Assembly (NCBI GenBank): GCA_001823535.1
Contig: MHUT01000018.1
Span: 55,628 to 119,627 of the forward strand
DNA: 64,000 nucleotides
DNA from: Candidatus Yonathbacteria bacterium RIFCSPHIGHO2_02_FULL_44_14
GTDB taxonomy: Bacteria > Patescibacteriota > Minisyncoccia > Phycocordibacterales > UBA1550
Direction of reading: 5' to 3'
The notes under the pieces are model-generated. The model saw only the letters and a program-made list of their open reading frames with translations. It did no database searches and had not been told where the DNA came from. Positions within the stretch are counted from its first letter, which is position 1. Each line of letters begins with the position of its first letter. Positions 19,539 through 35,069 of the stretch are shown piece by piece. Made by a program: the position numbers and the translations under genes.

Positions 19539-19539
19539 A

Positions 19540-20442
19540 ATGGAAAATAAAACACCACGCAAAGTAAATATTTTTTTGATATTATTCACTATTGTCTTTA
19601 TGTGTGCAACGGTATATTTGGGCTACCAAAACTACCAACTCAACCAAGCAAAGCTTTTGCTTGAAACAGAGCTTGTGAACACAAAACAGGATTTTGCATC
19701 AACAACAGAAAAACTTATGGGCGACATCGCAGCATTTAGAGACCTTCTCCTCGCAACACAAGCCGAAAGAGTAAACGCGGAACAAGACGTTCGCAAACAA
19801 CAAGAAGTACTCGATGCAATGTCAAACACACTGGGATCCTACGAGCGACTCGCAAACACCGACCGAGAACTTCTAGCAAAATATTCACGAGTGTATTTCT
19901 TGAACGAAAATTATAGCCCAAAACATTCTGTCACAATACCTCCCTCATACACATATAATGGGGACGGAGAGAAAATGATCTTGTCCGAAGTGTGGCCATT
20001 TCTTCAAAAAATGATCGACGATGCAAGTACCACAAACATTGATTTGAAAGTTGCTTCCGCATTTCGCTCATTCGATACGCAGAGCAAACTAAAATCTGCC
20101 TACACCGTTTCCTACGGCTCTGGTTCAAACAGATTTTCTGCCGACCAAGGATATTCCGAACACCAGCTAGGCACCACAGTAGATTTTACTACCTTAAAAA
20201 TAGGCTCTAATTTTTCCACATTTGAAAAAACAGCAAGTTACACATGGCTCACAGAAAACGCCTACAAATACGGGTTCATCCTTTCATATCCAAAAAAGAA
20301 TGCTTATTACATTTTTGAACCCTGGCACTGGAGATTTGTCGGAAAAGCCTTGGCGCTAAAACTGCATACTGAAAACAAAAACTTCTACGATGTTCCACAA
20401 CGTGACATTAATGAATATCTCATTAACATTTTTAACCAATAG
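19540..20442 (+). CDS. D-Ala-D-Ala carboxypeptidase VanY / peptidase M15B family (LAS metallopeptidase)
   Basis: N-terminal TM anchor. SEHQLGTTVD and EPWHWRFVG motifs match the H-x6-D ... E-x-W-H zinc ligand pattern of VanY-like enzymes. Confidence 0.65.
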   Translation: MENKTPRKVNIFLILFTIVFMCATVYLGYQNYQLNQAKLLLETELVNTKQDFASTTEKLMGDIAAFRDLLLATQAERVNAEQDVRKQQEVLDAMSNTLGSYERLANTDRELLAKYSRVYFLNENYSPKHSVTIPPSYTYNGDGEKMILSEVWPFLQKMIDDASTTNIDLKVASAFRSFDTQSKLKSAYTVSYGSGSNRFSADQGYSEHQLGTTVDFTTLKIGSNFSTFEKTASYTWLTENAYKYGFILSYPKKNAYYIFEPWHWRFVGKALALKLHTENKNFYDVPQRDINEYLINIFNQ

Positions 20443-20468
20443 CGACATTTAAGCCAAAACAGGTCTGC

Positions 20469-20867
20469 CTACAAAATAATCCACACCCACACCATCCCCC
20501 ACACCAAATACACCGACAATGTGCACCAAAAGCACCACGAGCGAATCAGGCGCCATTGAACATATAAAAAATAACACGACATTATCAACCCGCCAGAAAG
20601 AAGCACTGTCTCTCCAAGCACAAGCAAAGGATCATATGGTCCCCAAATGATGGAGTACTCGAGCACTGCTACCGTTGCATAAAAAATAATGCCGAGAACC
20701 TCATTCCCAACGCCAAAGGTTCTGCTGTATGGACTCTCCCACACAAGAGCGCAATCACCGCCAATCACACAAACAGGCGGGCGTTTCTTTTTTCTTTGAT
20801 AAAAAAGGTAGAGCGATTCTGCGACCCCTGCAAGCGCTAAAGTAAAAATAATAATGTGTGCGTTCAT
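20469..20867 (-). CDS. vitamin K epoxide reductase (VKOR) family membrane protein
   Basis: 4-5 TM, loop Cys pair (CVIGGDC) plus membrane CFWC redox motif. Confidence 0.55.
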   Translation of the reverse strand: MNAHIIIFTLALAGVAESLYLFYQRKKKRPPVCVIGGDCALVWESPYSRTFGVGNEVLGIIFYATVAVLEYSIIWGPYDPLLVLGETVLLSGGLIMSCYFLYVQWRLIRSWCFWCTLSVYLVWGMVWVWIIL

Positions 20868-20869
20868 GT

Positions 20870-22849
20870 TTATGCAATTTGTTCTTTATTAAGTTTCTTC
20901 GGCGTGATACCGTTTGCGATGAGAATCTTTTCAAAATCCTCGCGCTCGATGGACTCTTGCACTACAAGCTCATTCGCAATGGCATCAAGCGTTTTGCGAT
21001 GCGTTGTACAAGCCTCACGCGCACGCGCAAACGCATCATTCATGATTTTAGATACCTCCGCGTCAATTTTTGCAGAAACATCCTCCGAATAATCGCGACT
21101 GTCTACTCCGCGACCGCCAAAAAGCGCTCGTCCACCCGATCCCTCCAGCGCCACCGGCCCTAATTTTTCTGACATTCCGTACTTCGTGACCATATCGCGT
21201 GCAAGCGCGGTTGCCACCTGCAGGTCATTTGATGGCCCAGTCGTGATGTCGCCAAAAACCATCTCCTCAGCAACATACCCGCCAAGAGACATCGCGATGT
21301 CGTCCAAAAACTCTTTCCTAGACTGAAGGCGTGTTTCTTCGAGGGGAAGTTTGAGAGTGTACCCGCCCGCATTCCCGCGCGCAATGATTGATACCTTATG
21401 CACCGGATCTGCATGAGGAAGCACTGACGCAACGAGTGCATGCCCTGCTTCGTGGTATGCAGTAATCTTCTTTTCTTCTTTCGAGAGAATATGACTTTTG
21501 CGTTCGGGTCCGAGCATTACTTTTTCAATAGAACGAATAAGATCATATTGCGCAACCGTCTTTCGGTCTTCACGCGCCGCAAGAATAGCGCCTTCGTTCA
21601 TAAGTGACGACAGGTCAGCACCAGAAAATCCAGGTGTGCGCTCGGCAACAACTTTCAAATTAACATCCTCGGCGAGCGGCTTCTTGCGTGCATGAATATT
21701 CAAAATTTCCTCGCGTCCCTCGCGGTCTGGCAACTCAAGTGTGACACGTCGGTCGAAACGACCTGGACGAAGCAGGGCGGGATCGAGTACGTCAGGTCTG
21801 TTTGTCGCCGCCATCACGATAACTTTTTCTGATGGCTCAAAGCCATCCATCTCAACGAGAATTTGATTAAGTGTTTGCTCACGCTCGTCATTTCCTCCAC
21901 CCACGCCACCGCCTCGCACACGTCCGACTGCATCGATTTCATCAACGAAAATAATTGCAGGTGCAGCTTTTTTTGCCATCTTGAAAAGGTCGCGCACACG
22001 CGATGCGCCGACTCCGACAAACATTTCCACAAACTCAGAACCAGAGAGGTGAAAGAATGGCACGGCTGCCTCCCCTGCTACCGCACGCGCGAGGAGAGTC
22101 TTGCCAGTACCCGGTGCTCCCATAAGGAGCACACCCTTTGGAATACGCGCGCCAATGTCCAAAAACTTTTTAGGATTGCGGAGGAAGTCTACAATTTCAA
22201 CGAGCTCCTCTTTCGCCTCTTTTGCTCCAGCGACATCTTTGAATGTTACTTTTTGTCCTTGATCGTTCGGATCAATAATGCGCGCCTTGGATTGCCCAAA
22301 AGAAAACGCTTGCATTCCTGCCCCTTTTACTTGTCGCGAAAGCATCCAGAACACAAAACCGATGAGAAGGATCGGCAAGAGAAACGGCAACATATTGAGC
22401 GCATAGTAACCGAAACCACTTTCGTTTTTCACCTCAACCTCAATCTTTGCTAAATTTTCAGCTGACACGCCATAGTTCACCAGTGTTTGCAATAGAGAGG
22501 ATTCGACTTCCTTTTTGGATTTCTTTTTTGATCCATCAACATATTCGGCATTGATCATTCCGCCCTCAACAATGATCTTTTTTACGGTACCGCTTGAAAT
22601 ATCCTGTGCGATTTTTGAAACAGGCACTTCCTCAACCTTGCCCTTATTGCCCACTACGGCTCCGTAGAGCGTCGAAATAATTAGAAATATAAGGACAGCA
22701 GTGAGAAGGTTTGAGAAAAACTGCCCGCCAGTTGGCATTCCTCCAAACATCCCTGGAACGGGTGGCTTGGTTTTGTTCCCCCCTGTTTTACCCTTGTTTT
22801 TCTCTTTTTTGTTATTCTTCAAAATTTCCATAATATTGTCAGTATACAC
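20870..22849 (-). CDS. ftsH: ATP-dependent zinc metalloprotease FtsH
   Basis: 659 aa. AAA module [21 protein letters not shown], and HEAGHALV zinc site. N-terminal Gly-rich low-complexity extension. Confidence 0.9.
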
Positions 22850-22879
22850 AAATCCCCGTCAGACTGCTAGAATGACCTC

Positions 22880-23326
22880 ATGTCCCTCATAGAGAACAAA
22901 AAAATACACTTTAACTACGAAATACTGGAACGTTATGAAGCAGGTATCGAGCTTTTTGGTATTGAAGTTAAAGCTGTGCGGGCTGGTCGTGGCTCGCTCG
23001 AAGGTTCACATGTGACCGTGCGCGGAGGCGAAGCGTACCTTATTGGTGCGACAATTCAACCATATCAGGCAGGCAATACGCTGAAAGACTATGACGCGAC
23101 AAGAAACCGTAAGCTACTTTTGACAAAAACAGAGATTGCGGAGCTTTCGGCACAGGAGTCCAAAAAGGGCTTGACAATCGTGCCTATTGCGGTGTATAAT
23201 AAAAACCGTAAGCTCAAGGTTGAAATCGCGATTGTACGTGGCAAAAAAACGCACGACAAGCGCGAAACAATCAAAAAACGTGAGGCCGAGAGAGATGTGA
23301 TGCGCGACATTAAATCCGCAAGATAG
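22880..23326 (+). CDS. smpB: SsrA-binding protein SmpB
   Basis: 148 aa with the conserved SmpB core (GIELFGIEVKAVRAG...) and basic C-terminal tail. Confidence 0.85.
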   Translation: MSLIENKKIHFNYEILERYEAGIELFGIEVKAVRAGRGSLEGSHVTVRGGEAYLIGATIQPYQAGNTLKDYDATRNRKLLLTKTEIAELSAQESKKGLTIVPIAVYNKNRKLKVEIAIVRGKKTHDKRETIKKREAERDVMRDIKSAR

Positions 23327-23403
23327 ATGATTCTGCGGAGTCATGTCGCGCACCGTCGATTGAAGCGCGACGCACGTTGATAATTTAGTTAAGCATTTTA
23401 ATA

Positions 23404-23809
23404 CGGGGATGATCGGCCTAGACAGGCGATTCCCTCTTGTAGGTGCTATGCCGAGAATACTCGAGATCTCGTTAAACCTCGAGTACCAACCTAGTTGCAA
23501 AAAACAACCTCGTTGCAAAAGCAAAGTCAATTGTTTCACCTTTCTTTAAGGCGAACGACTTTGCTCCTACTTACGCTTTAGCCTAAGTAGCATTCGCGCT
23601 CAATACGCCCTCTAGGGAGTTGCGGGTGATATAAAAAGAGGGCTCATCGCTTTGAATGACTCTACGAAGTGAAAAAACATAGAGCATCGATAGTGTATAA
23701 TTTAGAATACTTTATATATACATTATTTAAACCCAAAAGAAGTATTCTACGCATAGTAGATTCCCACAAGAGCATCGTCTGCACGGGGGTTCGATTCCCC
23801 CCATCTCCA
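23404..23809 (+). ncRNA. ssrA: tmRNA (ssrA), about 406 nt, immediately downstream of smpB
   Basis: 5' GGGGATG pairs with 3' CATCTCC, including a G3:U70 wobble (the AlaRS identity element). T-arm GGGGG-TTCGATT-CCCCC. Internal tag ORF from resume codon GCG at 23550 encodes ANDFAPTYALA, stop TAA 23583-23585. 3' end followed by discriminator A. Confidence 0.8.
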
Positions 23810-25367
23810 CATCGTGGGAGTTTACACACGCAAACTCCTCAAAAAGCCTTACAGCACAAGGCAGGTTATCGGTTCGATAGCCTGTCTTTTTGCTATACGC
23901 CAGTTTCTCTTCAAAAATGAAGAAATAGAGCCTGTGTTTTTCAAGCACATCGACAGAGCTCCATATCTTGTATGGGCTTTTAAGCAATCCTGTAGCCTTA
24001 TTGAGGGCGGTTTGATAAGGAACCGATGTATCAGACAAATCGATATCAACAGCCCCTATTCCCTCGAACTCAATTACTACTTCCTCAAGCTTGCCCTCGT
24101 ATGCTCTTTTAACCGCATCTGATTTTGCGGCTATAATCAAATCAGTAAGTTCACTAATTTTTACCTCAAGCTCTTGCCTCTTTCTTTGCTTAAGATCCTC
24201 TAACTTACGAATATCTCCAGCCTCTTCTTGCCAGACCCCACTAAAAACTTTTTGCACTAAGACATCTACACCTCCACCCAATATTTGTTTTTTCAAAAGA
24301 GAGGTGAAGGCATCTTCCATATCTTTTTTCCTTATCATCTTGCCATTTTGTTCGCAATTCTTGTTTTGACAATAATAATACGGGTATTTTTTAGACCTTC
24401 CTTTGACCCACGCGCCAGTAAGAGGTTTGTTGCACTCGCCACACACATGCAAACCACGCAACGGAAAGTCATCTGAGACATCCACTCGTATTCTCTTGCT
24501 CAATCCTTGAGATTTAGTCCTTCTTTGATTTATCTCGTATGTATCTAAAGAAATAATTGCCTTATGGTGCCCCTTGCGTCGTTCAACCTCCCACTCGGGA
24601 TATTCGATAGACCCTGAGTAAAACGGATCTCTGAGTATTATCGAAAACTTATCAATGTACTTCTCTGGCGACTGCTTTCCCCAAAACCCATTCTCTACCA
24701 GATACTTGCAGGCATCAATTTTTCTTACAAAGACTCCCGTTGAAAAGCTTTCAAGGGCGTATTTGAGCAATGGTGCCTCTGTTTTATGCGGCACCGCAAG
24801 TTTGCCATGCAAGGGGTCTTTAATCATCGTGTAGCCCTTTTTACTGCCAAACGTCCAGTATCCTGACTCAAGGCGAGCCTTCATTTTCTGAATTACCTGT
24901 CGTGTATTCTGTTTCCTTTCGAGCTGTCCCTGTGCGGCAAATATTGTTTCAACGAACTCACCTTCCGCAGTATCCTCAAAGTTAAAGTTTAAACATTCTG
25001 GCTTTGCATCACGCACCTTTAGTGCCATGCGCAACTTAATGTGAAATTGTGTATCTCGTGCAAACCTTTTTAAGTCATCAAAAATGACAGCAAATCGGAT
25101 AGACGGGTTCTTATCAAGATACTCAATCAACTGAGACATTGCAGGGCGGTTCATAAAATCTCCACCACCACTAAAACTGTCACGAAATACTTTTTCAACA
25201 ACATAACCCTGGCGTGAAGCATATTCACGGCAACGCTGTTCTTGTCCATCTAACCCATGCCCCTCTGTTGCCTGACGATCAGAAGACACGCGACAATAAA
25301 TGAGTGCTCGGTCATATTTAATAACACTTTTATCAAACAAACTCTTTTTCTTTTTAGTTTTACTCAT
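23727..25367 (-). CDS. large serine recombinase (resolvase/invertase catalytic domain + recombinase domain + zinc ribbon)
   Basis: N-terminus ALIYCRVSSDRQ... (catalytic Ser motif of serine recombinases), 546 aa with C-terminal Cys cluster (CGEC...C..C). The last ~27 codons overlap the 3' end of ssrA (GGIEPP = reverse complement of the T-arm). Confidence 0.8.
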   Translation of the reverse strand: MSKTKKKKSLFDKSVIKYDRALIYCRVSSDRQATEGHGLDGQEQRCREYASRQGYVVEKVFRDSFSGGGDFMNRPAMSQLIEYLDKNPSIRFAVIFDDLKRFARDTQFHIKLRMALKVRDAKPECLNFNFEDTAEGEFVETIFAAQGQLERKQNTRQVIQKMKARLESGYWTFGSKKGYTMIKDPLHGKLAVPHKTEAPLLKYALESFSTGVFVRKIDACKYLVENGFWGKQSPEKYIDKFSIILRDPFYSGSIEYPEWEVERRKGHHKAIISLDTYEINQRRTKSQGLSKRIRVDVSDDFPLRGLHVCGECNKPLTGAWVKGRSKKYPYYYCQNKNCEQNGKMIRKKDMEDAFTSLLKKQILGGGVDVLVQKVFSGVWQEEAGDIRKLEDLKQRKRQELEVKISELTDLIIAAKSDAVKRAYEGKLEEVVIEFEGIGAVDIDLSDTSVPYQTALNKATGLLKSPYKIWSSVDVLEKHRLYFFIFEEKLAYSKKTGYRTDNLPCAVRLFEEFACVNSHDVEMGGIEPPCRRCSCGNLLCVEYFFWV

Positions 25368-25530
25368 GTGTTTTGTTTACTTCCTTCTCATCTACACTGA
25401 GGTGTGTTTGTAGTTCGGTTTTTATAACATTTCGACAAAATGCTTCGAGATACTTTAAGCGTTTAGTAATACTTTCATCCGATGTCTTTTGATCATTCAG
25501 TATCTTGCGATACTCCTCAACTGTAACCAT
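25360..25530 (-). CDS. small ORF (56 aa) translationally coupled to the serine recombinase, possible accessory / directionality factor
   Basis: MVTVEEYRKILNDQKTSDESITKRLKYLEAFCRNVIKTELQTHL... Its stop overlaps the recombinase ATG (CATGAGTAA arrangement). Too short for the ORF track. Confidence 0.2.
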   Translation of the reverse strand: MVTVEEYRKILNDQKTSDESITKRLKYLEAFCRNVIKTELQTHLSVDEKEVNKTHE

Positions 25531-25620
25531 GTATTTTCATGATTGCGATACTGATTCAGTTTTTCCTGATAGCACATATCTTTTTTATAATGCTTTGGTT
25601 TTTCCCAATAGCAGAATGTT

Positions 25621-26430
25621 TTATTTAAATCTTTTTTTCTTGGTTACCTCAAGAGACTTAGTTTCTCCGTCCTCCGCCTGAAAAACAACTTTGCCATACA
25701 TTCGATTATTTTTTATCTCTTTTTGTACATCCAAATAAGACTGGGGATTTTGAAACACTTTAGTGCTTTCTATTTCAAATATTTTTCCTTTGTTTAAACG
25801 AACCGAGACTTTTTTATTCTCCTCAGAGCGCAATTCTGAAAGAGTTTCTTGCTCCTCTGCGTTTAGATAGTCAAGAAAATGCATACCAACCACTTTGTGC
25901 CCCAAGTCCTCAAGAATCGCCGCCAGAGAGATTAGGGTAACATCGTAATGGCTCTTAAGTATTTTAAGAAACTGCACCTCAGACGGAGCCGCCAAATGGA
26001 CCTCCCCGTTCGAAATTATAATAATGTAAGGATCATCTGATGTACTTAGAGCCTTGGCGATATAAAACTCAAACAAAAGATAACTGCCGCTTTTTTTATC
26101 TAATTTAAGTAGACTTTCTTTAGCCGACTTAATTTTATCTAAAGATAATCCCGCTTCTCTCATTCTGACAATTGCCTTTATCCAAACAAGTTCAACAAGT
26201 GTAAATTTTCTCCAACCACCTCCCTCAATAACCCCATCTGGCAACAAATTATTTGTAGCCCAATGGTGTATCATTCTGTAGTTAACCTCAGTGTCGCTTA
26301 CTGTAAATTTTTTTGACCTCATATTCTCCCAAAATACTTCGTATTCTGGCGAAGAACAATACTCTTTAAAATCATTGATACGATTCTCGTTTTTCTCAAC
26401 AAAGGCACCTGATATCTCTTTTTTCTTCAT
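25621..26430 (-). CDS. hypothetical protein (269 aa), possible HTH-like segment
   Basis: The segment WRKFTLVELVWIKAIVRMREAGLSLDKIK loosely resembles a MerR/excisionase-type HTH. Otherwise no motif. AT-rich. Confidence 0.35.
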   Translation of the reverse strand: MKKKEISGAFVEKNENRINDFKEYCSSPEYEVFWENMRSKKFTVSDTEVNYRMIHHWATNNLLPDGVIEGGGWRKFTLVELVWIKAIVRMREAGLSLDKIKSAKESLLKLDKKSGSYLLFEFYIAKALSTSDDPYIIIISNGEVHLAAPSEVQFLKILKSHYDVTLISLAAILEDLGHKVVGMHFLDYLNAEEQETLSELRSEENKKVSVRLNKGKIFEIESTKVFQNPQSYLDVQKEIKNNRMYGKVVFQAEDGETKSLEVTKKKRFK

Positions 26431-26626
26431 ATACTAAATTATACATAGATGTAAGCTTTAATCAAACAACTTGTCCACAAAGCCAAATAGTTCCATGTTC
26501 ATCTCCCTTATCAGCCCCCCCAATATACCCAAAGTCTTTATCCTTTATTTTTTTCACCAAAAACCAAACGGACCTTTAAATTAGCCGTAATTCAGCGATT
26601 TTTACTTTTTTAGAAAAGGACAATGT

Positions 26627-26985
26627 TCCCTTTTCCTTCACCCTTTCTTAACCTTGCTCTTCTTTACAAAAAAACAGATCTGTCCTTATAATTAGGACGT
26701 TATTTTAAATTTACGCTCCCGCATTCAAGGTGAAATTAACCATGAAATTCACCTTTTCTTTTCCTTGCTTTTCTTTGCAAAAAACCAACTAACCCTTTTA
26801 ACTAAGGCATTATTGGGGAATTTACGCTTCGCAGTCAAGGACAAATTATCCATGCAATTTACCTTTTCTTTTCATTGACTGCCTATACATAAAATTCATT
26901 AAACCCTTACAGTGAGGGTATTATTTAAAAATTAACACCCTAATTATCAATGATAATCTTTCTTTGCTTTTAACCTTTTTCGAAT
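26627..26985. repeat. three degenerate tandem repeats of about 120 bp in an 800-bp intergenic region, each ending in an AAGGTGAAATT-type inverted repeat (iteron-like)
   Basis: Unit consensus ttcaccttttcttttccttgc...caaaaaac...ttacgct(c/t)cgca(t/g)tcaagg(t/a)(g/c)aaatta(a/t)ccatg(a/c)aat. Perfect 11-bp inverted repeat aaggtgaaatt/aatttcacctt at 26727-26755. Confidence 0.5.
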
Positions 26986-27227
26986 CCGTAGACATACACC
27001 TAATGCCCCATCGGAGTTCGTGTGTACACCTATGCCGTTTGATGATAAAATAACCCTACAACCAAATAAGGAAGTATCCTAAACCATTGAGCAATCGGTG
27101 GCATGGTGAATAAGTCGAGTTAAGCATAAAGAACCCATCATGGGGTCGCTTAACTCGCCATATCGGGAAACCGGTATGAGTGGCTTAGGCCACTACCCGT
27201 GGTGGGCTTTTTGTATATCCAATAAAA

Positions 27228-28229
27228 ATGAAATCTAACAAAATATTAATACTCACCACCGCTTTTGCGAGCATTCTAACTTTGAGTGGTGTTGGTTATG
27301 TCAGTGTAAGGCAATATCAAAATTATCAGGAAGCGAGGGTTGGCGAAGCAAAGCAAGCACAAGAGCAAAGCATTGCCTTAAGAGATGCAGCCGTAGAAAT
27401 TAAAAAACTTAAACAAGAAAGCGAGCTGGCTAAACAAAAGCAAACAAGCCTTGAAGAGAGGGTTGGCGATGCCGCCAAATCGAGTGTACAAAACTTGTCG
27501 ATATCATCAACAGAACTTGCCCCCTACTTAACTGGTGTAGTCGAAATTGACTGTGTAGACACTAAAGGTAGCGGCTCTTTGTGGAATCTACCCGGCGTGG
27601 GTTACGTCGTTTTGACCAATAAGCATGTTGTAACCAAACCTTACCCAGCGACTGGGACATGCTGGGTAATGATTAGCGACTCAGAGAGAAGCAAAATCTC
27701 TGGTGACTTTAACACTATTGGTGTATATGACCTTAATCCAATTAAAAGATTTGCTTATAAATATCAACAGGCAGTGAACAGCAAGGTGGACATTGCCGTC
27801 TATCCAATTGAAAACAAAAATTTTGCAGAAATTAGCAATCCGATTGAAGGCTTAAACTATAAAATTTCTTCGCTAAAAAAGTGTCCTGAAGAGATGCCCG
27901 CCGGCTCCCCTATTGTTTTATTAGGATTCCCAGCATTTACAGAAAAAACAATAGAGGTCTTTGGATCTTCTCAAAACAAATCTTTCAGAACGATTACCAA
28001 TGGCATAATTAGCGCTCATGACACTTCAGTTACTGGCATATTTGGCGATTTGCCGTACGTCAATTATTTCGTCTCAGCAAAAATCGACAGTGGTAATTCT
28101 GGTGGAATTGCGTTTTCAAAGGATTCAAGGGGGTTGTGCGTCTTAGGAATCCCCACGTGGCTTACTGTTGGTAATTACGAAACACAAGGACTAATTCAAA
28201 ACATACATAATGCCTTTTACTCAAAATAA
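27228..28229 (+). CDS. membrane-anchored / secreted trypsin-like serine peptidase (S1 family)
   Basis: N-terminal TM/signal, coiled-coil linker, then catalytic-triad contexts TNKHVV (His), DIAVYP (Asp), DSGNSGG (Ser). Confidence 0.6.
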   Translation: MKSNKILILTTAFASILTLSGVGYVSVRQYQNYQEARVGEAKQAQEQSIALRDAAVEIKKLKQESELAKQKQTSLEERVGDAAKSSVQNLSISSTELAPYLTGVVEIDCVDTKGSGSLWNLPGVGYVVLTNKHVVTKPYPATGTCWVMISDSERSKISGDFNTIGVYDLNPIKRFAYKYQQAVNSKVDIAVYPIENKNFAEISNPIEGLNYKISSLKKCPEEMPAGSPIVLLGFPAFTEKTIEVFGSSQNKSFRTITNGIISAHDTSVTGIFGDLPYVNYFVSAKIDSGNSGGIAFSKDSRGLCVLGIPTWLTVGNYETQGLIQNIHNAFYSK

Positions 28230-28255
28230 CGAAATAATTTGAACATCAAAAAAAC

Positions 28256-28465
28256 ATGAACAAACCTTTTGTCGCTTGGAATTTAATATGGGTAGTGATA
28301 GCTCTTACTGTCATACTATTTTCTGACAGTTCAACTAACTGGGGCCAAGCTATGCCAGTCGTAGTTGCATCAATAGTCCTCTATTTTTCTATAGGAAAAA
28401 GAATTGACCACCTTGAAAGTAAGATTGACGCAAAAAAATCAAAAACTAATAAACTACATCAATAA
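28256..28465 (+). CDS. small membrane protein (69 aa, 2 TM)
   Basis: Hydrophobic ORF immediately downstream of the protease gene. Confidence 0.3.
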   Translation: MNKPFVAWNLIWVVIALTVILFSDSSTNWGQAMPVVVASIVLYFSIGKRIDHLESKIDAKKSKTNKLHQ

Positions 28466-28470
28466 TAAAA

Positions 28471-30222
28471 CTACTCTTTCGACTCTTCATAGTCGATAGC
28501 CTGTTTAAACTGTTTATAGAACAAAGGATCACTAACACTGAGTTTTACAACCTGTCTATCTCGAACATCAAACTTGAGCTCTTTGTCAGCTAAAGCATCA
28601 GGCATCACATCAGAATTATAGGTCGCAATATACTGAAAAGAATTCTCGTCCAAAGAATGTATATAGTTAACGATGTTGAAAGTAGCATCGTTGTCTATGT
28701 CACCAAAAAGTAGCCTATCGTGGACTAATAATTTTTGCATTTTTTCAGATGTGTGCTCGTTAACCAGTAAGCTCAGATCGTAAATTATCTGCCTAACTCG
28801 ATTTACTCCTTCACTCCCTTGCCGATGTGCTTCTGCTTTTATCTTAAAGAACTCTTTATCTTTTATATTTCTTTTTAGGCTTAAGTCAAAAGCAAATACT
28901 CCATCTTTGTTGCCATAGATTTTCTCGTGAATATCAAGAAAAGTTTTACGAAAAGATACTTCTTTTCCATTGACAACAAAGAAGGCGGCTTCCAGCGTTG
29001 AATACAGTGTTTGAAACTCAGAATTTACCTCTCTTGCATTCTGGTCATATTCATCGTAGGTTTCTATAAGTTTCCCATTATCATTAAAATCATTTATTAA
29101 TTCATGAGAAATCTTCAGCCCTCTTTGAAGATGGTTTCTCCCTTCAGTAATAATTGCTTGATACTTCAACGTATTAACCCTCTGGGTAGTGATGTCGTTT
29201 TCCAAGCGTGCAAGGCTACCCCTGAGAGCGTCTTCTTGCCCTGAGAGCATCTCCGCCTCAAAAACATGGATTTCGTCCCTAAACTTTTTCAACTGTTCTA
29301 AATCTCTTTGCACAAAATCTCCGAGTCCTGCAATATACTTATTAAAAAAACGTTGTAATTGCTTGTCTGTGATAATCGTATCTTCATCTTGATGCCCGAG
29401 AAATTCCTCGATTTCACTAAGTTGGTACTCAATCCTACCCTTCTGTCTAAGGGTGTCAGTCAATGCGTCCTCTGCCTCTTGCAACTTTGATGAATTACTT
29501 GAAACCTCTTTTGAGATTTCGTCGTAGGACAACCCTTGCTCTATTTTTACTATTCTCTCCTCTAAATCCGATTGTAGAGAACGCAGTTTATTAATATCAA
29601 GCCCCTTGTCTTCTATTTTCTTTATTGTCACCCTTGAAACAGTGCTTAGGCTGTCATACTCATCTTGCTTTGATCGAAGTTGTTCAAATAATTTTACAGG
29701 TAGTCCAAAGAAATATAAACTGGTGCGCAACCTATCTATTACATTAGACGGAAAAAAGTAAAGAAAAGTAGAATAAGAGTAATTAGATTCTTTAATTACA
29801 AAATTACATAGTTCCCTAAAAGAAATATCATTACCTAACCCTGAGATGTTAGCAAGTTCATCTTTAGCAGTTTTTTCTGACATCTCCTGGAACTCACCAT
29901 TATCAACCTTCATCAATACTTCATTTTTCTTATTTCGCGCTACCGTAACATCCTTCCCGTTAATGGTAAGGTTCATGTACACGAAGGAATTCTGAGGGAG
30001 AATGCTATCTGGCACCCCGTGTATGCGACCCTCGCTCTCTCTTTTCATCAAAACAAAATTAATTAATTCAATTGAGAGGCTTTTCCCAGACCCATTTCGC
30101 TGCTCATTTACATTGCCATTTTTGTCCTTTGAATTTTCTCCAACAATAAAATTTATCCCCGGTTTAAAAACGAGTTCTTTAAACCTATTTTCCTCAGACC
30201 AGACTCTATTGATTCTTATCAT
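28471..30222 (-). CDS. coiled-coil ABC-type (SMC/RecF-like) ATPase, candidate ABC-3C-system ATPase (DUF2326-like)
   Basis: N-terminal P-loop FKPGINFIVGENSKDKNGNVNEQRNGSGKSLSIELINFVL; about 300 aa predicted coiled coil; C-terminal Walker B / D-loop KLLVHDRLLFGDID. 583 aa. Confidence 0.55.
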   Translation of the reverse strand: MIRINRVWSEENRFKELVFKPGINFIVGENSKDKNGNVNEQRNGSGKSLSIELINFVLMKRESEGRIHGVPDSILPQNSFVYMNLTINGKDVTVARNKKNEVLMKVDNGEFQEMSEKTAKDELANISGLGNDISFRELCNFVIKESNYSYSTFLYFFPSNVIDRLRTSLYFFGLPVKLFEQLRSKQDEYDSLSTVSRVTIKKIEDKGLDINKLRSLQSDLEERIVKIEQGLSYDEISKEVSSNSSKLQEAEDALTDTLRQKGRIEYQLSEIEEFLGHQDEDTIITDKQLQRFFNKYIAGLGDFVQRDLEQLKKFRDEIHVFEAEMLSGQEDALRGSLARLENDITTQRVNTLKYQAIITEGRNHLQRGLKISHELINDFNDNGKLIETYDEYDQNAREVNSEFQTLYSTLEAAFFVVNGKEVSFRKTFLDIHEKIYGNKDGVFAFDLSLKRNIKDKEFFKIKAEAHRQGSEGVNRVRQIIYDLSLLVNEHTSEKMQKLLVHDRLLFGDIDNDATFNIVNYIHSLDENSFQYIATYNSDVMPDALADKELKFDVRDRQVVKLSVSDPLFYKQFKQAIDYEESKE

Positions 30223-30508
30223 GTTTCTTAATAGTTATATACGGTCTTTCAAATTCGATTAACTTTAGTGCATACATTAAAAATATTGCGAAATATATTT
30301 GCCTTCCAGGAACACGCGGGCTGATTTTTCTTATCTGATTGAATAAAGTATAAATTGGGATATTTTTGTCCTCCCGCAACATACCTGGGGCACGAACGTT
30401 ATCTCGCAAAAGTAAATAACAAAGATATATTGGGCTTGAAGTAATCCGGGCATGCTTGTTAAAAAGCGAAAGCTGTACATTTTCCTTTTCTACTAAAACT
30501 TGTTTCAT
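30206..30508 (-). CDS. small (100 aa) protein, candidate middle component of the three-gene system
   Basis: Overlaps the ATPase start by 17 nt. Its start abuts the stop of the upstream gene (30510), indicating translational coupling. Confidence 0.4.
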   Translation of the reverse strand: MKQVLVEKENVQLSLFNKHARITSSPIYLCYLLLRDNVRAPGMLREDKNIPIYTLFNQIRKISPRVPGRQIYFAIFLMYALKLIEFERPYITIKKHDKNQ

Positions 30509-30509
30509 A

Positions 30510-31517
30510 TTATATCTTAATTAAAGGAAAAACGTCGCATTTAAAAAACATATTCAGCAAGAAACTTAAGACATGTGAACTTGGGACAAATCCCAAACCT
30601 AACTCATTTCTCATTTGTAAGGCCATCTGGTTAATAGCATTCACTGGGTCGTTGTTATTCGCGTGAAGCAAAATTGTACTTTTGGTTCTTAGATATCCCT
30701 GTATAACACTCTTGTCGACCTCGTTTAGATCCTGAGAAAATGCTTCTTCTACATATTTGTGGTAGGAAATAAACCTCTCAATCTCAGACCCATCGTCTTT
30801 TAAACCAATGGAGGCTTTATAGATCTGGACCAACGCAGTCCATTCATCATTATATTTTTTCATTTTTTCCGCAGGGCTTGTTATGTACACCAGCTCCTCG
30901 TTCTCAATATTACTTTCCGATGAATTATTTCTCAACGAGAGGTTGAGAGAATTGAATAACATTTTGAACACTTCGGCATCCACATTTCTGTTAGAAATAA
31001 CATCTTCTGGCATAACAATAGATCCTTCGACATACGCACATATTTTCTTCATTTGTTCATCATCTGCATTATCAATCTCACGGAATATTTCGGCTGCAGA
31101 CAAAATCTTCAAAGAATAGCCTTCGTAAGACGGAGCAAATTTTTTAAGGTTATTTGGTAAATCAGTATCCTGAATTACAAAAAGAACCTCTGAAAAATCT
31201 TTATTCTCAGAAAAGGGTGGGATACTTGTGAAGGTATTTTTGATCTTTGATAAATCCTTTTGAACAGTTACTTGAATGCCTTGCTTCTTTTTAGTACTCA
31301 GAACATCAATACCCGGATAATTTACTTTTAATTTTTTTGTTGGTATATATTCTGGGTTATCCTTTTCGTATAGAATATTATATAATCCTGTTATAAAATC
31401 TTCAGCAGAAATTGCCCCGTTATTTCTGTTTGTTTTTGAATCTGTCCTGTTCTTTTGAAAATACAAAAGGGTCTTTGATGTTATTGAGTCCCACATCTTC
31501 TCCCTTAAAGTAATCAT
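30510..31517 (-). CDS. 335-aa protein, candidate effector component (first gene of the operon)
   Basis: First gene of the co-directional trio. Weak PD-(D/E)xK-like spacing around PGIDVL...KQGIQVTVQK. Otherwise unassigned. Confidence 0.35.
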   Translation of the reverse strand: MITLREKMWDSITSKTLLYFQKNRTDSKTNRNNGAISAEDFITGLYNILYEKDNPEYIPTKKLKVNYPGIDVLSTKKKQGIQVTVQKDLSKIKNTFTSIPPFSENKDFSEVLFVIQDTDLPNNLKKFAPSYEGYSLKILSAAEIFREIDNADDEQMKKICAYVEGSIVMPEDVISNRNVDAEVFKMLFNSLNLSLRNNSSESNIENEELVYITSPAEKMKKYNDEWTALVQIYKASIGLKDDGSEIERFISYHKYVEEAFSQDLNEVDKSVIQGYLRTKSTILLHANNNDPVNAINQMALQMRNELGLGFVPSSHVLSFLLNMFFKCDVFPLIKI

Positions 31518-31890
31518 GATTTAAATATTATAGCACCCAATCACACAAGACCGCTACTCAATCGCCAGCTGACTTATTATCAAATTCTTATATTCTCACG
31601 TGGTCAACATCGTGTGACTTCAAAACATCTCATATGGCCTGTTTTATGACCCTACAAGCACCTTTTAAACCTCTTGGTTCTCAAAATATAGAGCTCTGAA
31701 TGACCATTAACTGTGTAGCCTGACTTTCCCACCCATTCTAACTAATACTTAATTCAATACTCTACCTGTGCCCCTCTGATGACTGCTTAATCAAACATTT
31801 GCAAGGGCTAATTGTAGCGCAGGACTGCTTTGATAATATGTCCAAAAGCGAGAAAGATAGGTTTTTACACGGTTTAATGTTTTTTGGCGT

Positions 31891-31954
31891 ATCTCCACAA
31901 ATATGCAAAAAACCCAGAACAAGCGTTCTGGGTTTTTTGCATATTTGTGGAGAT
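31891..31954. repeat. perfect 64-bp palindrome (30-bp arms, 4-nt centre) containing a bidirectional intrinsic-terminator core
   Basis: atctccacaaatatgcaaaaaacccagaac-aagc-gttctgggttttttgcatatttgtggagat. The left arm starts with atctccaca, identical to the last 9 nt of ssrA (23803-23811). Confidence 0.6.
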
Positions 31955-31956
31955 GA

Positions 31957-32455
31957 GCAGTGTGCCTGCGCACACTGCGTGGGGGAATCGAAGCCTCGGA
32001 GCATATTTTTGTTTGCCACCTGCAAACAAAAATGCGAGAGGCAGCCAAAGAACGCGAGATGTTTTATGAATCCGATAGGATGAAATAAAACTCCGCGATT
32101 CTGAGGCGATGAACCTGGGGAATCGAGAAGCAGAAGCGGGCACCTAGTGTACTCACTGGGTCGCTGAGATGGGGCTGAAAGTACTTGGTGCTCGCAGTGA
32201 GTACTCTCACGAGAACACCTAGTAACTTGTAGCCGATGAACCCCAAAGACGCCTGTGCGTCTTGCGTGGGGGAATCGAAAGACGGAGGCATCCCGAGGCT
32301 TCTGCGAAGGAGCCGAGTCGGGGTAGCGGATACTTAATGCTCGCAGGGCGTACTCGCCCGAGAACATTTAGTAATCCGTGACCGATGAACCCTGAATCAA
32401 AAAGCTCAGGCGGATACCCTGTGTACTCACATGGTATCCGAGTTAGGCTGAAAGT
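31957..32455. repeat. tandem array (3-4 copies) of about 140-nt structured repeat units, candidate ncRNA(s)
   Basis: Units end in cgatgaacc (32107-32115, 32234-32242, 32383-32391) and begin with (t)ggggaatcga(g/a)aag. Conserved hairpins with loop TACT whose stems differ by compensatory changes (gcagTGAGtactCTCAcgag 32194-32213 vs gcagGGCGtactCGCCcgag 32343-32362). Confidence 0.5.
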
Positions 32456-32480
32456 AAAAAGCGCTTCCGAAGAAGCGCGT
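32456..32480 (-). terminator. intrinsic terminator downstream of the 32512..32934 gene (minus strand)
   Basis: GCGCTTC-ttcg-GAAGCGC followed by TTTTTAC on the minus strand. Confidence 0.45.
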
Positions 32481-32511
32481 TGTCAAAAATCTCAAAAAAA
32501 GAACAAGTGTA

Positions 32512-32934
32512 TCAACAAACCAAATCTTCTTCGGCCTCGCCTTCATTGGGGCAAGTGCCGGTGAACGCATTGAGACACCAGATATTGTTACAAGATACAC
32601 AACTGGCATCCCGAACTTCTTGGTGGCGTGGCAACTCCCACAATAACACTGCTGCACGGCCGCCTTGTGCCTCGGGTTCCTGCTGATCAACAACATCCGC
32701 TAACTCATGCGGATCCAACACTTCGTCGAAATCGGGCGAATAACCTTGGGGTGTCGTGACACCCTCTTTGATTGGTGGTTTCCAAAAATGAACGAGGTGC
32801 AGCATTGCAATATATCTTGCGTTTTCAGCCATCCCTAAAGATGGAGTGATTTTCCGTGCATAGGGCAAGGAAGCCCTTCTTTCTACATTCATTTTTGTTC
32901 CCCTTTCAAAAAACTGTTCGAAAATATGACCCAT
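32512..32934 (-). CDS. hypothetical protein (140 aa)
   Basis: ORF with Cys-rich C-terminus (CVSCNNIWCLNAFTGTCPNEG). No assignable family. Confidence 0.3.
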   Translation of the reverse strand: MGHIFEQFFERGTKMNVERRASLPYARKITPSLGMAENARYIAMLHLVHFWKPPIKEGVTTPQGYSPDFDEVLDPHELADVVDQQEPEAQGGRAAVLLWELPRHQEVRDASCVSCNNIWCLNAFTGTCPNEGEAEEDLVC

Positions 32935-33055
32935 TTATTGCATAAATATAACTGAAATATTGTATCATATATTGAATGTTTTGTATAGGGCTTCGTGTAT
33001 TATGATATAAGAAAGTTTGTTGTGCCACTTTACAAAACAAAAAAAAGTAGTATAA

Positions 33056-33685
33056 ATGCAAAAGGGTTTGCCCTTTCATTCACACAAGGAGGTTATCATG
33101 TATGAGGAACGAATTTCCTACAACAAGGAAACGTTATTGGATTTAGCTCATTCGCAATTCGGGGGATTCTATAACAGACGAATGGACAAAGAAAATTTCT
33201 TGCAAGACTTGTGGAGTATGCTTGCATCATTTACACGCTATAACAAATGCAACTCACTCATTCAAAGTGCGGTGCTCAACCTTGAGCACAGCGATCTTAT
33301 ACCCCGCACTTTTCTTATCCTCTCGATACAGTACGGATCATTTCACCTCACTCCAAGCAGGATAAGCATTCTCAAGGACTTCATCGGTCTGCTTGATAAA
33401 GATTTTGAGGATGAAGAGTTGCGTGTTTGCGCGTATGCTCACGAAAAAACTTTCACCTTCTTCCCGGAGCTTTATCAGGTTTGGCAGAACATTCGGGAGG
33501 TATATGGAGCAGAAGAATTTAATTTGAGCGTACTCCCTCCAACGCCATACTATGCGTACCACTTTCTCGCACTCAACCGCAGGGGAAAAATGGAAAAGAA
33601 TCCACGGGGTGCGGAATTGTTCGGGGAACTCTGCGCTATTGAACATCAAATGGAAAAGCTTTTTTTGCTCACAACTCCCCTGTAA
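33056..33685 (+). CDS. hypothetical protein (209 aa)
   Basis: Clean ORF with a plausible RBS context. No recognisable motif. Confidence 0.35.
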   Translation: MQKGLPFHSHKEVIMYEERISYNKETLLDLAHSQFGGFYNRRMDKENFLQDLWSMLASFTRYNKCNSLIQSAVLNLEHSDLIPRTFLILSIQYGSFHLTPSRISILKDFIGLLDKDFEDEELRVCAYAHEKTFTFFPELYQVWQNIREVYGAEEFNLSVLPPTPYYAYHFLALNRRGKMEKNPRGAELFGELCAIEHQMEKLFLLTTPL

Positions 33686-33736
33686 AATCGTTCATAACAA
33701 CAATCGATCAAATCAAAAGCCATCCGTAATTCCAGG

Positions 33737-34498
33737 ATGGCTTTTTCTTTACCCTATCCCCCATGCTATACTACACCCATGCCATCCCCTCATCGCATCC
33801 TCCTCAAACTATCAGGCGAGCAATTCGCTGGTAAAAATGCCTTTGGTATTGATACTGATTTCCTTCTCGACCTCGCGCGCGAGCTTCACGAAGTGGTCAC
33901 GGAAACCAAAGTGCAAATCGTTATTGTTGTCGGTGGTGGAAACTTTCTTCGCGGAGCTGCTCTTTCAAAAAATGAAGCGACTATCGAGCGCGCAACTGCC
34001 GACTATATGGGAATGCTCGCAACCGTCATGAACGGCATGGCGCTTGTGGATATCCTCGAGCATTTTGGTCAGCCCGCTCGTCTCCAGACGCGTATTCGCA
34101 TTGATTCGGTCGCTGAACCATTTATTCGCAGGCGCGCAATTCGTCACCTTGAAAAAGGGCGTATCGTAGTCATTGGCGGAGGAACCGGCAACCCCTATGT
34201 GACCACCGACACCGCAGCGGTGTCCACCGCTCTTGAGCTCGGATGCGACATTGTCCTCAAGGCAACAAAAGTAGACGGTGTATATTCACAAGATCCAAAC
34301 AAACACAGCGACGCGGTAAAAATAACACAGATGTCACATCTCGACGTTATTAAAGATGAAAACATTTCAGTAATGGATAATGCGGCAATCTCTCTTGCTA
34401 TGGACAACAAGCTTCCACTTCGAATTTTTGAGCTTCTCACAAAAGGCAATATCAAGCGCATCGCAAACGGTGAAGAAGTGGGTACTCTGGTGAAATAG
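33737..34498 (+). CDS. pyrH: UMP kinase PyrH
   Basis: RILLKLSGE...VIVVGGGNFLRG...GTGNPYVTTDTAA amino-acid kinase family signatures. Confidence 0.85.
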   Translation: MAFSLPYPPCYTTPMPSPHRILLKLSGEQFAGKNAFGIDTDFLLDLARELHEVVTETKVQIVIVVGGGNFLRGAALSKNEATIERATADYMGMLATVMNGMALVDILEHFGQPARLQTRIRIDSVAEPFIRRRAIRHLEKGRIVVIGGGTGNPYVTTDTAAVSTALELGCDIVLKATKVDGVYSQDPNKHSDAVKITQMSHLDVIKDENISVMDNAAISLAMDNKLPLRIFELLTKGNIKRIANGEEVGTLVK

Positions 34499-34506
34499 AT
34501 AAATAA

Positions 34507-34550
34507 AAAATCCCGCATTTGTTCGGTCGAACAAATGCGGGATTTTTTAT
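34507..34550. terminator. bidirectional intrinsic terminator between convergent pyrH and 34551..34985
   Basis: AAAAAATCCCGCATTTGTTCG-gt-CGAACAAATGCGGGATTTTTTAT: 16-bp perfect stem flanked by A-run and T-run. Confidence 0.65.
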
Positions 34551-34985
34551 TTATCTGCTCCAAAACTCACTTGTAAAATAATTGTAGTTAATCATTCCCT
34601 GGTACGCGGCAAAAATATACCAAACAGAAAGAATGAGTCCGATGATTGAAAATATAAGCCCGGTACGTGCCCATTTTTGACGTAATGACCGAAGACCGAT
34701 AATAGAGAGCGTAATACCTGCCAACGAATACACAACACCAAAAAGAATCACAATCCATGAAATCATTGCAACCGCACCAAGAATCATTCCGATGAATGCG
34801 CATCTCTCTCGAGGCCCATCTGTTTTTTTAAGAAGCTCCGGCGGGATAAACGAGAACTTGGGCAATGATGTTAATTTATGTGGTGGTGCAGCGAGAATAA
34901 CTTCCTGCTGTTCTTGAATTGGATTAAAATGTTCTAGTTCCATTGCATATAGTGTACCAGATTTTTTACGCACACAAGATGACAC
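34551..34985 (-). CDS. small integral membrane protein (DUF4190-like, 2 TM at C-terminus)
   Basis: C-terminal pair of TM helices with Gly/Ile-rich pattern. Confidence 0.4.
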   Translation of the reverse strand: MSSCVRKKSGTLYAMELEHFNPIQEQQEVILAAPPHKLTSLPKFSFIPPELLKKTDGPRERCAFIGMILGAVAMISWIVILFGVVYSLAGITLSIIGLRSLRQKWARTGLIFSIIGLILSVWYIFAAYQGMINYNYFTSEFWSR

Positions 34986-35069
34986 CCTGTTGAAAACTTC
35001 ACTAGCTAGTGCATGGATGCAGGTGTATGATTAAATAAAGGTCTTAGTAATTCATTAAACAGAAATATT

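Follow-up and report, generated by a model that had tools for sequence, protein, structure and literature searches.

The window analysed here comprises 64,000 nucleotides of contig MHUT01000018.1 from Candidatus Yonathbacteria bacterium RIFCSPHIGHO2_02_FULL_44_14 and carries, directly downstream of ssrA, the gene for transfer-messenger RNA (tmRNA), a block of low-GC DNA that is very probably an 8.1-kb integrative element placed in the tmRNA 3' end by its own large serine integrase. Reconstruction of the junctions showed that attP, the attachment site of the circular form, lies within the open reading frame (ORF) of the integrase, the gene being cut on integration, by prediction, 35 codons before its stop codon. 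By the same reconstruction, the free and the integrated element encode different integrase C-termini. The element belongs to a large and apparently undescribed family of elements that split their integrase gene when they integrate. Related genomes and loci are referred to by our own numbers (L001 and so forth), and feature coordinates in the window are collected in Table 1.

An initial annotation of the window, made from the sequence alone, had proposed that foreign DNA was inserted at the ssrA 3' end, and comparison with related genomes bore this out. The island-specific DNA (23812-31890, 8,079 bp) is enclosed by direct repeats of the 9-bp block ATCTCCACA. This block occurs three times in the window (plus strand, 23803 and 31891; minus strand, 31946) compared to 0.33 expected occurrences, and three copies were reached in 0 of 100 shuffles. 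The direct copies at 23803 and 31891 agree with the earlier observation that a palindrome at the distal end begins with the last nine nucleotides of the tmRNA. When one genome per species was scanned with the last 25 nt of the window tmRNA, occupied as well as empty sites were recovered in related genomes. The Patescibacteria metagenome-assembled genome (MAG) L110 is collinear with window positions 18915-23811 (76.6% over 4,932 nt) and resumes at 31891-31992 and 31965-32120, with the nine nucleotides ATCTCCACA common to both junctions. In L069, a MAG annotated as Yonathbacteria, FtsH-smpB-ssrA extends to the equivalent of 23811 and is followed by sequence matching 32116-32245 and then by the amino-acid kinase gene found at 33767-34510 in the window; further empty sites were found in L054, L038 and L030. 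These empty sites show that the island was inserted at the ssrA 3' end and define its boundaries exactly. The greater AT-richness that had been noted by eye was confirmed as well: the GC content of the island is 0.376 vs 0.449 in the rest of the window, about 11 standard deviations (SD) below 158 windows of the same size outside the island (minimum 0.435, SD 0.0067), and GC at third codon positions, reported as lower throughout the island genes, is 0.32-0.40 in these and 0.385-0.50 in flanking genes. Conserved gene order without a compositional shift, which had been named beforehand as the outcome that would speak against an insertion, was not found, and the opposite was seen.

The palindrome at the distal end is indeed perfect, with 30-nt arms that are 100% complementary and a 4-nt loop, adding up to 64 bp. 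In many Patescibacteria with an uninterrupted locus, ssrA runs directly into a long hairpin with the outer stem ATCTCCACA...TGTGGAGAT, and this layout is present directly 3' of ssrA in the empty-site genomes L026, L028, L033, L059, L084, L106, L110, L115, L120 and L126. Because empty-site genomes have the same layout, the palindrome can be recognized as the native ssrA terminator, shifted by 8 kb through the insertion. The earlier suggestion that its left arm marks the distal attachment site or boundary was therefore correct with respect to the boundary, while the palindrome itself is, judged from this layout, a terminator and no recombinase site in its own right. The ssrA gene is intact, with the 3' strand of the acceptor stem ending at 23808 and the discriminator A at 23809, and because the crossover falls on the last bases of the mature RNA, the tmRNA itself is unaltered and only its 3' trailer and terminator are exchanged. 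The P' arm that the island places behind the tmRNA contains two hairpins. The first, at 23817-23838, is GGAGTTT-N8-AAACTCC, and the second, a 14-pair stem followed by a T-tract (23858-23888), was detected by a terminator scan inside the integrase coding region. On the opposite strand the P' arm encodes the integrase motifs EEF..N and GYRTD, the latter covered by the second hairpin, and the arm is kept in L009, L011, L013, L041, L094 and L111. The hairpin and T-tract at 23858-23888 likely serve as replacement terminator of ssrA.

The integrase ORF overlaps the tmRNA gene by 84 nt on the opposite strand, in agreement with the overlap of its C-terminal codons described in the initial annotation. 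Residues 1 to approximately 520 are derived from the island. The segment from 23727 to about 23805, which supplies approximately 26 further residues up to the C-terminus, is the T-arm and acceptor of the tmRNA read in antisense. Pfam domains Resolvase (PF00239, E 6.4e-21, residues 21-170) and Zn_ribbon_recom (PF13408, E 3.5e-9) were detected, the protein matches the PHROG integrase family phrog_95 (8e-58), and it aligns with the catalytic domain of the TP901-1 integrase including the RVSS motif, of which R26, V27 and S28 are invariant among 26 aligned homologues. The nearest NCBIfam models are CcrB, the best match, and XisF, both far under their cut-offs. An AlphaFold2 (AF2) model calculated from 66 homologues reached a mean predicted local distance difference test score (pLDDT) of 85 and contains long helices at residues 367-413 and 417-436. 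In a Foldseek comparison with the PDB, the top-ranking structures were those of full-length serine integrases in complex with attachment sites (9y66, 9dxh, 9dxf, Bxb1 9iu2, PhiC31 9rah and LI integrase 4kis), and the model aligns over approximately 550 columns with 9y66, 9dxh, 9iu2 and 9rah at a probability of 1.0. Domain content, conserved motifs and modelled fold identify the 546-aa protein as a genuine member of the large serine integrases, as its earlier designation as large serine recombinase implied, and it belongs to a distinct family. Among 50,697 phage records, no integrase was more than 25% identical (best one below 25%), and IMG/VR contained a single relative with 37% identity. A protein search returned thousands of relatives, of which the best 120 are all at least 51% identical to the query, and the named ones among these come nearly all from Patescibacteria MAGs. 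Cluster mates are annotated merely as 'Resolvase-like protein' or hypothetical. The family-specific C-terminal region (residues 440-519) was found in 138 clusters at 50% identity among 1.84 billion representatives.

Association with the 3' ends of stable RNA genes is a property of the whole family. Five of five homologues that were looked up adjoin a tmRNA gene that is overlapped by the integrase 3' end, with smpB alongside in four cases. A metagenome scan yielded 80 further loci with integrases of 39-95% identity, of which 53 had enough downstream sequence to judge. In 41 of these 53, ARAGORN placed a gene in convergent orientation beneath the 3' end of the integrase gene (16 tmRNA, 18 tRNA-Ala, two tRNA-Ile, two tRNA-Leu and one each of tRNA-Glu, tRNA-Arg and tRNA-Thr), and in five more the integrase contains the peptide DVEM(G/A)GIEP, the antisense translation of acceptor and T-arm, so that at least 46 of the 53 informative loci have the integrase at a tmRNA or tRNA 3' end. 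All 26 aligned homologues terminate in ...RLFEEFAxxNxxDVEMGGIEPP, and when empty sites were queried with the integrase by tblastn, residues ~519-546 matched the tmRNA gene itself. The comparison of loci thus shows targeting of tmRNA and tRNA 3' ends throughout the integrase family. The junction pairs of 19 elements have a single sequence in common throughout, GTGGA when read on the integrase strand and TCCAC when read on that of the RNA. Identity blocks in single elements span 5-9 bp, the elements are 4-9 kb long, and the att cores are in direct and not in inverted orientation at every element. These cores were read by eye from the junctions, as an automatic search for the longest repeat gave chance repeats in many loci. 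TCCAC corresponds to the last three bases of the acceptor stem, the discriminator A and one base beyond, and the preference for tmRNA and tRNA-Ala genes fits this core because their acceptor ends are alike. From the exact junctions and the common TCCAC core, attP x attB recombination by the integrase with a 2-bp staggered crossover is predicted.

In L139, the real tmRNA gene is located approximately 430 nt further on, beyond two short segments of about 200 nt each (11100-11560) that lie between the integrase end and the tmRNA and open with the att core and a truncated T-arm (GTGGAGATGGGGGGAT...). These segments look like scars of earlier insertions, comparable to the tandem accretion in Dehalococcoides. 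L158 likewise contains two tail-coding segments upstream of one integrase.

No family member was found with a stop codon ahead of the junction. When the window island was circularised on paper, the ORF continued from ...SHDVE into IRQKTLNRVKTYLSRFWTYYQSSPALQLALANV and then reached a stop codon, so that the tail joins in frame at residue D519 and the free form of the integrase would have 554 aa. The reconstructed sites are ...TTTTTTGGCGTATCTCCACATCGTGGGAGTTT... for attP and ...GATTCCCCCCATCTCCACAAATATGCAAAAAACCC... for attB, with the predicted junction sequences GGTTTAATGTTTTTTGGCGTATCTCCACATCGTGGGAGTTTACACACGC and GGTTCGATTCCCCCCATCTCCACAAATATGCAAAAAACCCAGAAC, respectively. A relative with an uninterrupted gene was found in L159, a contig of 7,422 bp with the same core genes as the island, which because of a terminal overlap of 55 nt represents a circle of 7,367 bp. 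Its integrase has 559 aa and ends in NTLNRLKDYLFRFWEYHQTSIALQKALEFA, a sequence homologous to the predicted tail. With both tails as tblastn queries, the motif V[ED]xxxKTLNxLKxYLSRFWxYYQSSPxLQKALxN was detected in approximately 20 further elements, each time in the orientation of the integrase, at a distance of 4-9 kb upstream, and with the GTGGA core as its exact start. Twenty-one tails could be aligned without gaps and have the stop codon mostly at one position. Differences between them amount to 0.31, 0.31 and 0.49 at the first, second and third codon position, and the greater variation at third positions argues for selection on the protein. AF2 predicted two helices for the tail with confidence values of 63-83, obtained without alignment support, so that little can be said about the docking site. 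A single-sequence AF2 model of the free-form integrase (pLDDT 37.5) was set aside as unusable, and the 93 C-terminal residues of the free form, used as protein query, gave only five candidates of which none spanned the tail, an uninformative result. A function of the tail as common degradation tag was dismissed, since the endings are too varied (...ANV, ...ANA, ...ENT, ...EFA).

Besides the integrase, the comparison of loci defines a conserved family core consisting of a MerR-like protein and an ORF of 45-56 aa, often accompanied by a LOOT RNA. The tiny coupled ORF and the 269-aa protein that were listed in the initial annotation are both present, the former overlapping the integrase start by 8 nt and the latter with a helix-turn-helix (HTH) domain of the MerR_1 type. 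In each of 40 loci, among them the circular L159, a homologue of the small ORF directly precedes the integrase gene, with the consensus MVTxEEYRKILNDxxSSDEQIKKRLxYLEAFCRNIIKxEL. MerR-like homologues were present in 20 loci, again including L159. In Pfam, PHROG and NCBIfam, the 56-aa ORF had no family match, and neither had the MerR-like protein past its HTH. Both proteins are candidate regulators or directionality factors of recombination. The tandem repeats upstream of the MerR-like gene, reported earlier with a period of 120 bp, proved to be real, with a corrected period of 110-111 nt in three copies. Promoter-like and hairpin-like elements occur in each copy, copy 1 having a near-consensus promoter-like site (11/12) and copies 1 and 3 a short hairpin with a T-rich run behind it; the array is partly kept in L136.

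The LOOT RNA, absent from the first account of the island, scored 85.9 bits vs a gathering threshold of 46.4 and covers model positions 1-121. It is followed by a conserved, terminator-like 3' extension, ACCCGUGGUGGGCUUUUUG, that lies outside the Rfam model. A covariance model (R1) built from three LOOT matches detected LOOT inside 25 related loci including L159 (also L013 8751-8876 and L015 8288-8409), and about 12 of 20 complete elements contain it. The ORF that begins 3-180 nt after LOOT opens almost always with a signal or transmembrane segment, often ...ASWWNPFSW. From this arrangement, LOOT looks like the leader of an element-borne gene for an exported protein, or like a small RNA that ends just before that gene.

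In the mechanism that we propose, the element's own integrase would insert the circular 8.1-kb form at the extreme 3' end of ssrA. The circular form would encode an integrase with the 35-aa tail, integration would leave the tail segment at the far end of the island (31791-31898), and the integrated gene would read into the antisense strand of the tmRNA T-arm instead of the native tail. We infer that this exchange of tails changes the activity or the direction of the integrase after integration, and the element may be excised again as a circle. A more speculative combination, to which we give only limited credence, would have the tail act as an integration-state sensor, in that the circle alone would encode the complete, integration-competent integrase and removal of the tail would alter its activity or directionality, and LOOT as cis-acting leader of the exported-protein gene.

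The relationships among elements do not follow those of their hosts. The hosts of the window island and of L136 have VanY and VKOR proteins with 63% and 56% identity, respectively, while the integrases of the two elements are 94-95%, the MerR-like proteins 94% and the small ORFs 91% identical and the cargo differs. L009, from an equally close host (FtsH 91%), contains a distant element (integrase 74%, MerR-like protein 37.5%), and in L160 (host FtsH 83.5%) the same ssrA site is occupied by an element whose integrase is only 46% identical. Empty ssrA sites occur within the same clade. Judged by these identities, the phylogeny of the island is decoupled from that of its hosts. Genes for transfer or replication are absent from all elements of this size. 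Because the element has no transfer genes, it may move by mobilisation, by transformation or with another vehicle. On the 44.7-kb contig L173 (positions 1-21485), an integrase of 46% identity with an uninterrupted, tail-like C-terminus adjoins genes for a MobA/VirD2 relaxase, ArdC, a coupling-protein-like protein and an nSTAND NTPase, and L173 is probably a conjugative or mobilisable relative in the free state. In the window, a host protein of 931 aa (42256-45051, minus strand) has weak matches to type IV coupling domains (TrwB_AAD_bind, TraG-D_C), and a homologue is encoded at the same relative position in L013; it is a conceivable route of export or uptake for the element. Mobilisation is possible in view of the relaxase and coupling-like genes of L173 and the coupling-protein-like protein of the window host.

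Several observations weigh against active integration and excision by the element's own integrase. The Pfam match to Recombinase (PF07508) is borderline, just under the cut-off (21.0 vs 21.1 bits), the crossover dinucleotide can be bounded to TCCAC by the junctions and not more closely, and no recombination directionality factor was identified. Neither replication nor conjugation or packaging genes were found on the island with Pfam and PHROG, and L159 might represent a plasmid that replicates and not an island after excision. Neither an excised circle nor an empty site of the island's own was observed: 20 of 20 contigs with an identical integrase were integrated at ssrA, and the exact 554-aa protein of the excised form was not present in a collection of 15 billion sequences. 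The tail-less integrated integrase could be inactive, leaving the island stuck. The uniform integration of these contigs, the lack of the excised-form protein in public collections and the conservation of the tail, which is hence presumably needed, would fit an island that entered via a serine integrase, became immobile with the loss of the tail and now behaves as ordinary chromosomal DNA. The same possibility was raised by McMurdie et al. for DsiB, the serine recombinase of Dehalococcoides ssrA islands (PMC3146451). However, neither stop codons nor frameshifts interrupt the ORFs of integrase and tail, the two att cores are likewise intact, the 94%-identical core in a host with VanY and VKOR proteins of 56-63% identity is difficult to reconcile with a fixed remnant, and a circular relative, L159, exists, so that we consider fixation of the island unlikely.

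We give slightly less weight to an integrative plasmid that replicates itself after excision and for which integration would be a single phase of its existence; the MerR-like protein would then be the initiator, and the iterons would be represented by the three 110-nt repeats. In favour of this, L159 was assembled at 36x nominal coverage into a complete circle of 7.4 kb that has its core genes in common with the island, the repeats adjoin the MerR-like gene, and the integrase with the intact tail in L173 lies beside relaxase, ArdC and coupling-protein-like genes. Yet the island proteins had no match to a Rep, primase or helicase family in Pfam, PHROG and NCBIfam, and no comparable repeat arrays are present in L009, L013 and L015, for which reason an iteron or origin function of the repeats was discarded as an assignment and is kept as part of this minor alternative. 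That the island is a phage satellite or a degraded prophage with ssrA as attachment site is very improbable. Prophages commonly use ssrA as their site (PMC4383910), and the integrase matches phrog_95, but this is the sole strong PHROG match, the protease having two weak ones (2.3e-5 and 7.1e-3) to families of unknown function. No capsid, terminase, portal or lysis gene is present on the island, the scarcity of relatives among phage integrases and in IMG/VR described above speaks against a phage origin, and the elements measure just 4-9 kb. Hardly any weight can be given to an invertase or resolvase acting on inverted repeats near ssrA in a native low-GC block: inverted copies of the tmRNA 3' end do occur downstream (31946-31992) and the smpB-ssrA-island block of L013 is inverted relative to its FtsH and IF3 flanks, but the inverted copies are found in empty-site genomes too, empty sites have exact junctions, the att cores flanking every element are direct, and the protein has the full architecture of an integrase with zinc ribbon and coiled coil. 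Insertion by the element's own large serine integrase remains the reading that we prefer to all of these.

Table 1. Features of the ssrA island and its borders, with positions in the window.
Feature	Position	Strand	Evidence or remark
smpB	22880-23326	+	148-aa ORF; Pfam SmpB on the identical gene in L001; host gene 5' of ssrA
ssrA (tmRNA), integration target	23405-23811	+	ARAGORN 23405-23810; Rfam RF00023 23405-23812, 121.8 bits
attL identity block ATCTCCACA	23803-23811	+	Island junction at ssrA
Family core TCCAC within attL block	23806-23810	+	Expected to hold the crossover dinucleotide
P' arm of island	23817-23888	+	Two hairpins just 3' of the tmRNA end
Large serine integrase, integrated form, 546 aa	23727-25367	-	Pfam, PHROG, AF2/Foldseek
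56-aa ORF	25360-25530	-	Overlaps integrase start, translationally coupled
MerR-like protein, 269 aa	25621-26430	-	Pfam MerR_1 HTH, 6.9e-9
Three diverged direct repeats, 110-111 nt	26609-26917		Between MerR-like gene and LOOT; 61-77% alike
LOOT RNA RF03000 with 3' extension	27076-27213	+	Rfam match 27076-27194; 33 nt upstream of protease gene
Trypsin-like serine protease, exported	27228-28229	+	Pfam Trypsin_2, 5.6e-8; N-terminal hydrophobic segment
Small ORF, 69 aa	28256-28465	+	Cargo; follows LOOT in L136 too
DUF2326 protein	28471-30222	-	Pfam 7.8e-20; PADLOC PDC-M68B (candidate system PDC-M68), 2e-40
Middle ORF of trio, 100 aa	30206-30508	-	Between SMEK_N and DUF2326 genes
SMEK_N protein	30510-31517	-	Pfam SMEK_N, 4.6e-14; NCBIfam SMEK_N
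Displaced integrase gene 3' end	31791-31898	-	tblastn; encodes native 35-aa tail VEIRQKTLNRVKTYLSRFWTYYQSSPALQLALANV and stop codon
attR identity block ATCTCCACA	31891-31899	+	Distal island junction
Palindrome (native ssrA terminator, host B' side of attR)	31891-31954	+	Arms 31891-31920 and 31925-31954

The cargo varies between elements and looks defence-related; in the window it includes an ABC-3C-like trio. This trio and the secreted protease were recognized correctly in the initial annotation: the protease has a Trypsin_2 domain behind its hydrophobic N-terminus, and a SMEK protein, a small middle gene and a DUF2326-type ATPase are combined in one operon, the layout by which ABC-3C systems are defined. 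The 100-aa middle ORF, reported as overlapping both neighbours, had no match in Pfam, PADLOC, PHROG and NCBIfam. The same cargo layout, with the trio at 25% identity and a distant version of the protease, is carried by L013 in a distant host. Other elements encode a C5 methylase and a GHKL ATPase/Ymh protein (L136), a Z1/SNF2 protein and a C5 methylase (L159) or AAA_21 and EMARD proteins (L015). The LOOT-led exported protease and the ABC-3C-like trio may confer a conflict or defence function on the host.

Immediately beyond the ssrA terminator, in host DNA (31955-32480, plus strand), a structured unit of approximately 130 nt is repeated in tandem about 3.5 times; it is closed by pairing of GGGGAAUCG with CGAUGAACCCC and contains inner hairpins with UACU loops. 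Units were also found in L069 (5317-5446), L054 (975-1103), L038 (1714-2044), L110 (4940-5259), L160 (3394-3705), L009 (1884-2015) and L136 (4360-4492), and because empty-site genomes have the array too, it lies outside the island. The unit had no Rfam match at E<=1. Compensatory changes were observed in 18 of 30 pairs (10 units from 8 genomes and 9 loci), compared to 7.6 +/- 1.7 pairs in shuffles and 0-5 pairs when the partners were slid. We regard the array as a candidate for a novel ssrA-linked RNA or repeat of Paceibacteria. At the start of the first unit in L009, L030, L054 and L160, the 3' end of the tmRNA is repeated in inverted orientation; in the window, this copy (31946-31992) is broken by a 25-nt insert. 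Copies of the T-arm-like sequence GGGGGAATCGAA were considered as remnants of tRNA or tmRNA genes on the minus strand and rejected, as they have no T-stem partner and no ARAGORN or Rfam match; they are the closing helices of the host repeat. A tRNA-Ile gene with the anticodon TAT is located at 19401-19475 and occupies the same place in L011, L013, L015, L110 and L111; this anticodon is uncommon for bacterial tRNA-Ile. In L013 (1-15000, compared with window positions 17000-36000), the distal end of the island adjoins FtsH and the tRNA-Ile, and smpB adjoins IF3, L35 and L20, the opposite of the arrangement in the window.

Patescibacteria have tiny genomes, and few mobile elements have been described in them. 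The elements of 4-9 kb look like a main route by which these bacteria swap conflict and defence cassettes at one fixed and essential locus. Our analysis adds a defined and conserved split of an integrase gene, a short universal core at tmRNA and tRNA ends and a link to LOOT, an orphan RNA motif that gains a genomic home and a candidate role. If LOOT acted as a leader, this would be the first biological context for the motif, and if the tail were a sensor, it would represent a control of serine integrases without sole reliance on a separate directionality factor. For recombinase engineering, the family offers enzymes with less than 25% identity to characterised ones, a very short conserved core and a gene that itself spans attP.

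Features of the island recur in several known systems. Similar to the islands and prophages of tyrosine integrases (Williams 2003; Islander database, PMC4383910), the island targets the 3' end of ssrA or tRNA genes without disrupting the gene, has its far end marked by a direct repeat and carries its integrase gene beside an att site. In contrast to these islands, the recombinase is a serine recombinase here, the identity block is limited to 5-9 bp, no tRNA-gene fragment is needed, and there are no arm-type sites. SSV1-type archaeal viral integrases are tyrosine recombinases with attP in the int ORF, and integration partitions int into large parts. In the present family, only the last 35 of approximately 554 residues are displaced. 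In mycobacteriophage BPs, studied by Broussard et al. in 2013, the split gene is reportedly that of a repressor, the recombinase belongs to the tyrosine class, and the tail that is lost acts as a degradation tag. Unlike in BPs, the split gene described here is that of the serine integrase itself, and the tail has no consistent degron-like ending. Common to both systems are, in comparison with the integration-dependent immunity of BPs and its relatives (PMC4557955), the location of attP in a coding gene and a C-terminus that is changed by integration, by which the cell could tell an integrated from a free element. With the integrases of Bxb1, PhiC31, TP901-1 and A118/LI, the integrase shares the catalytic domain, the recombinase domain, the zinc ribbon with coiled coil and the same fold, but its identity to phage serine integrases is below 25% and it has an extra conserved C-terminal region (residues ~440-554). 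The phage enzymes of this class that have been characterised are known to recombine into protein-coding or intergenic DNA, with attP located outside their int ORF.

In the literature, no description of these elements in Patescibacteria was found, and by its architecture the island is not a new kind of system, the nearest precedent being the ssrA islands of Dehalococcoides with DsiB. DsiB is a CcrB-like serine recombinase of about 540 aa that is encoded on the reverse strand beside attL, and the islands have low GC content, variable cargo and no transfer genes (PMC3146451). The statement in the initial annotation that a large serine recombinase at ssrA would be unusual therefore holds only in part, given this precedent from 2011 and the frequent occurrence of the present integrase family on tmRNA and tRNA genes in Patescibacteria. 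The window integrase likewise adjoins attL at ssrA on the opposite strand, its ORF crosses attL with no stop codon inside the island, and its best NCBIfam match is CcrB, its likeness to DsiB being one of description. Whereas the Dehalococcoides islands have a 20-bp repeat and a crossover in the T-loop, the block here spans 5-9 bp (9 bp in the window) at the acceptor end and discriminator, and the targets extend to tRNA-Ala and other tRNA genes. The DsiB module additionally contains the small serine recombinase DsiA, RecF-like, ParB and Mom proteins and a tRNA-Gly-like gene, while the module described here comprises the MerR-like protein, the 45-56-aa ORF and often LOOT; in the window island, no second Resolvase, ParB or Mom match was obtained with Pfam, PHROG and NCBIfam and no extra tRNA with ARAGORN. 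The dsiB gene always overlaps attL and has its stop codon outside the island, and it was suggested that it is complete or fully functional only on the circle (PMC3146451). What was only suggested for DsiB is here represented by a missing integrase tail that is identified, conserved and fused to the integrase in a circular relative, which makes the idea of 2011 directly testable.

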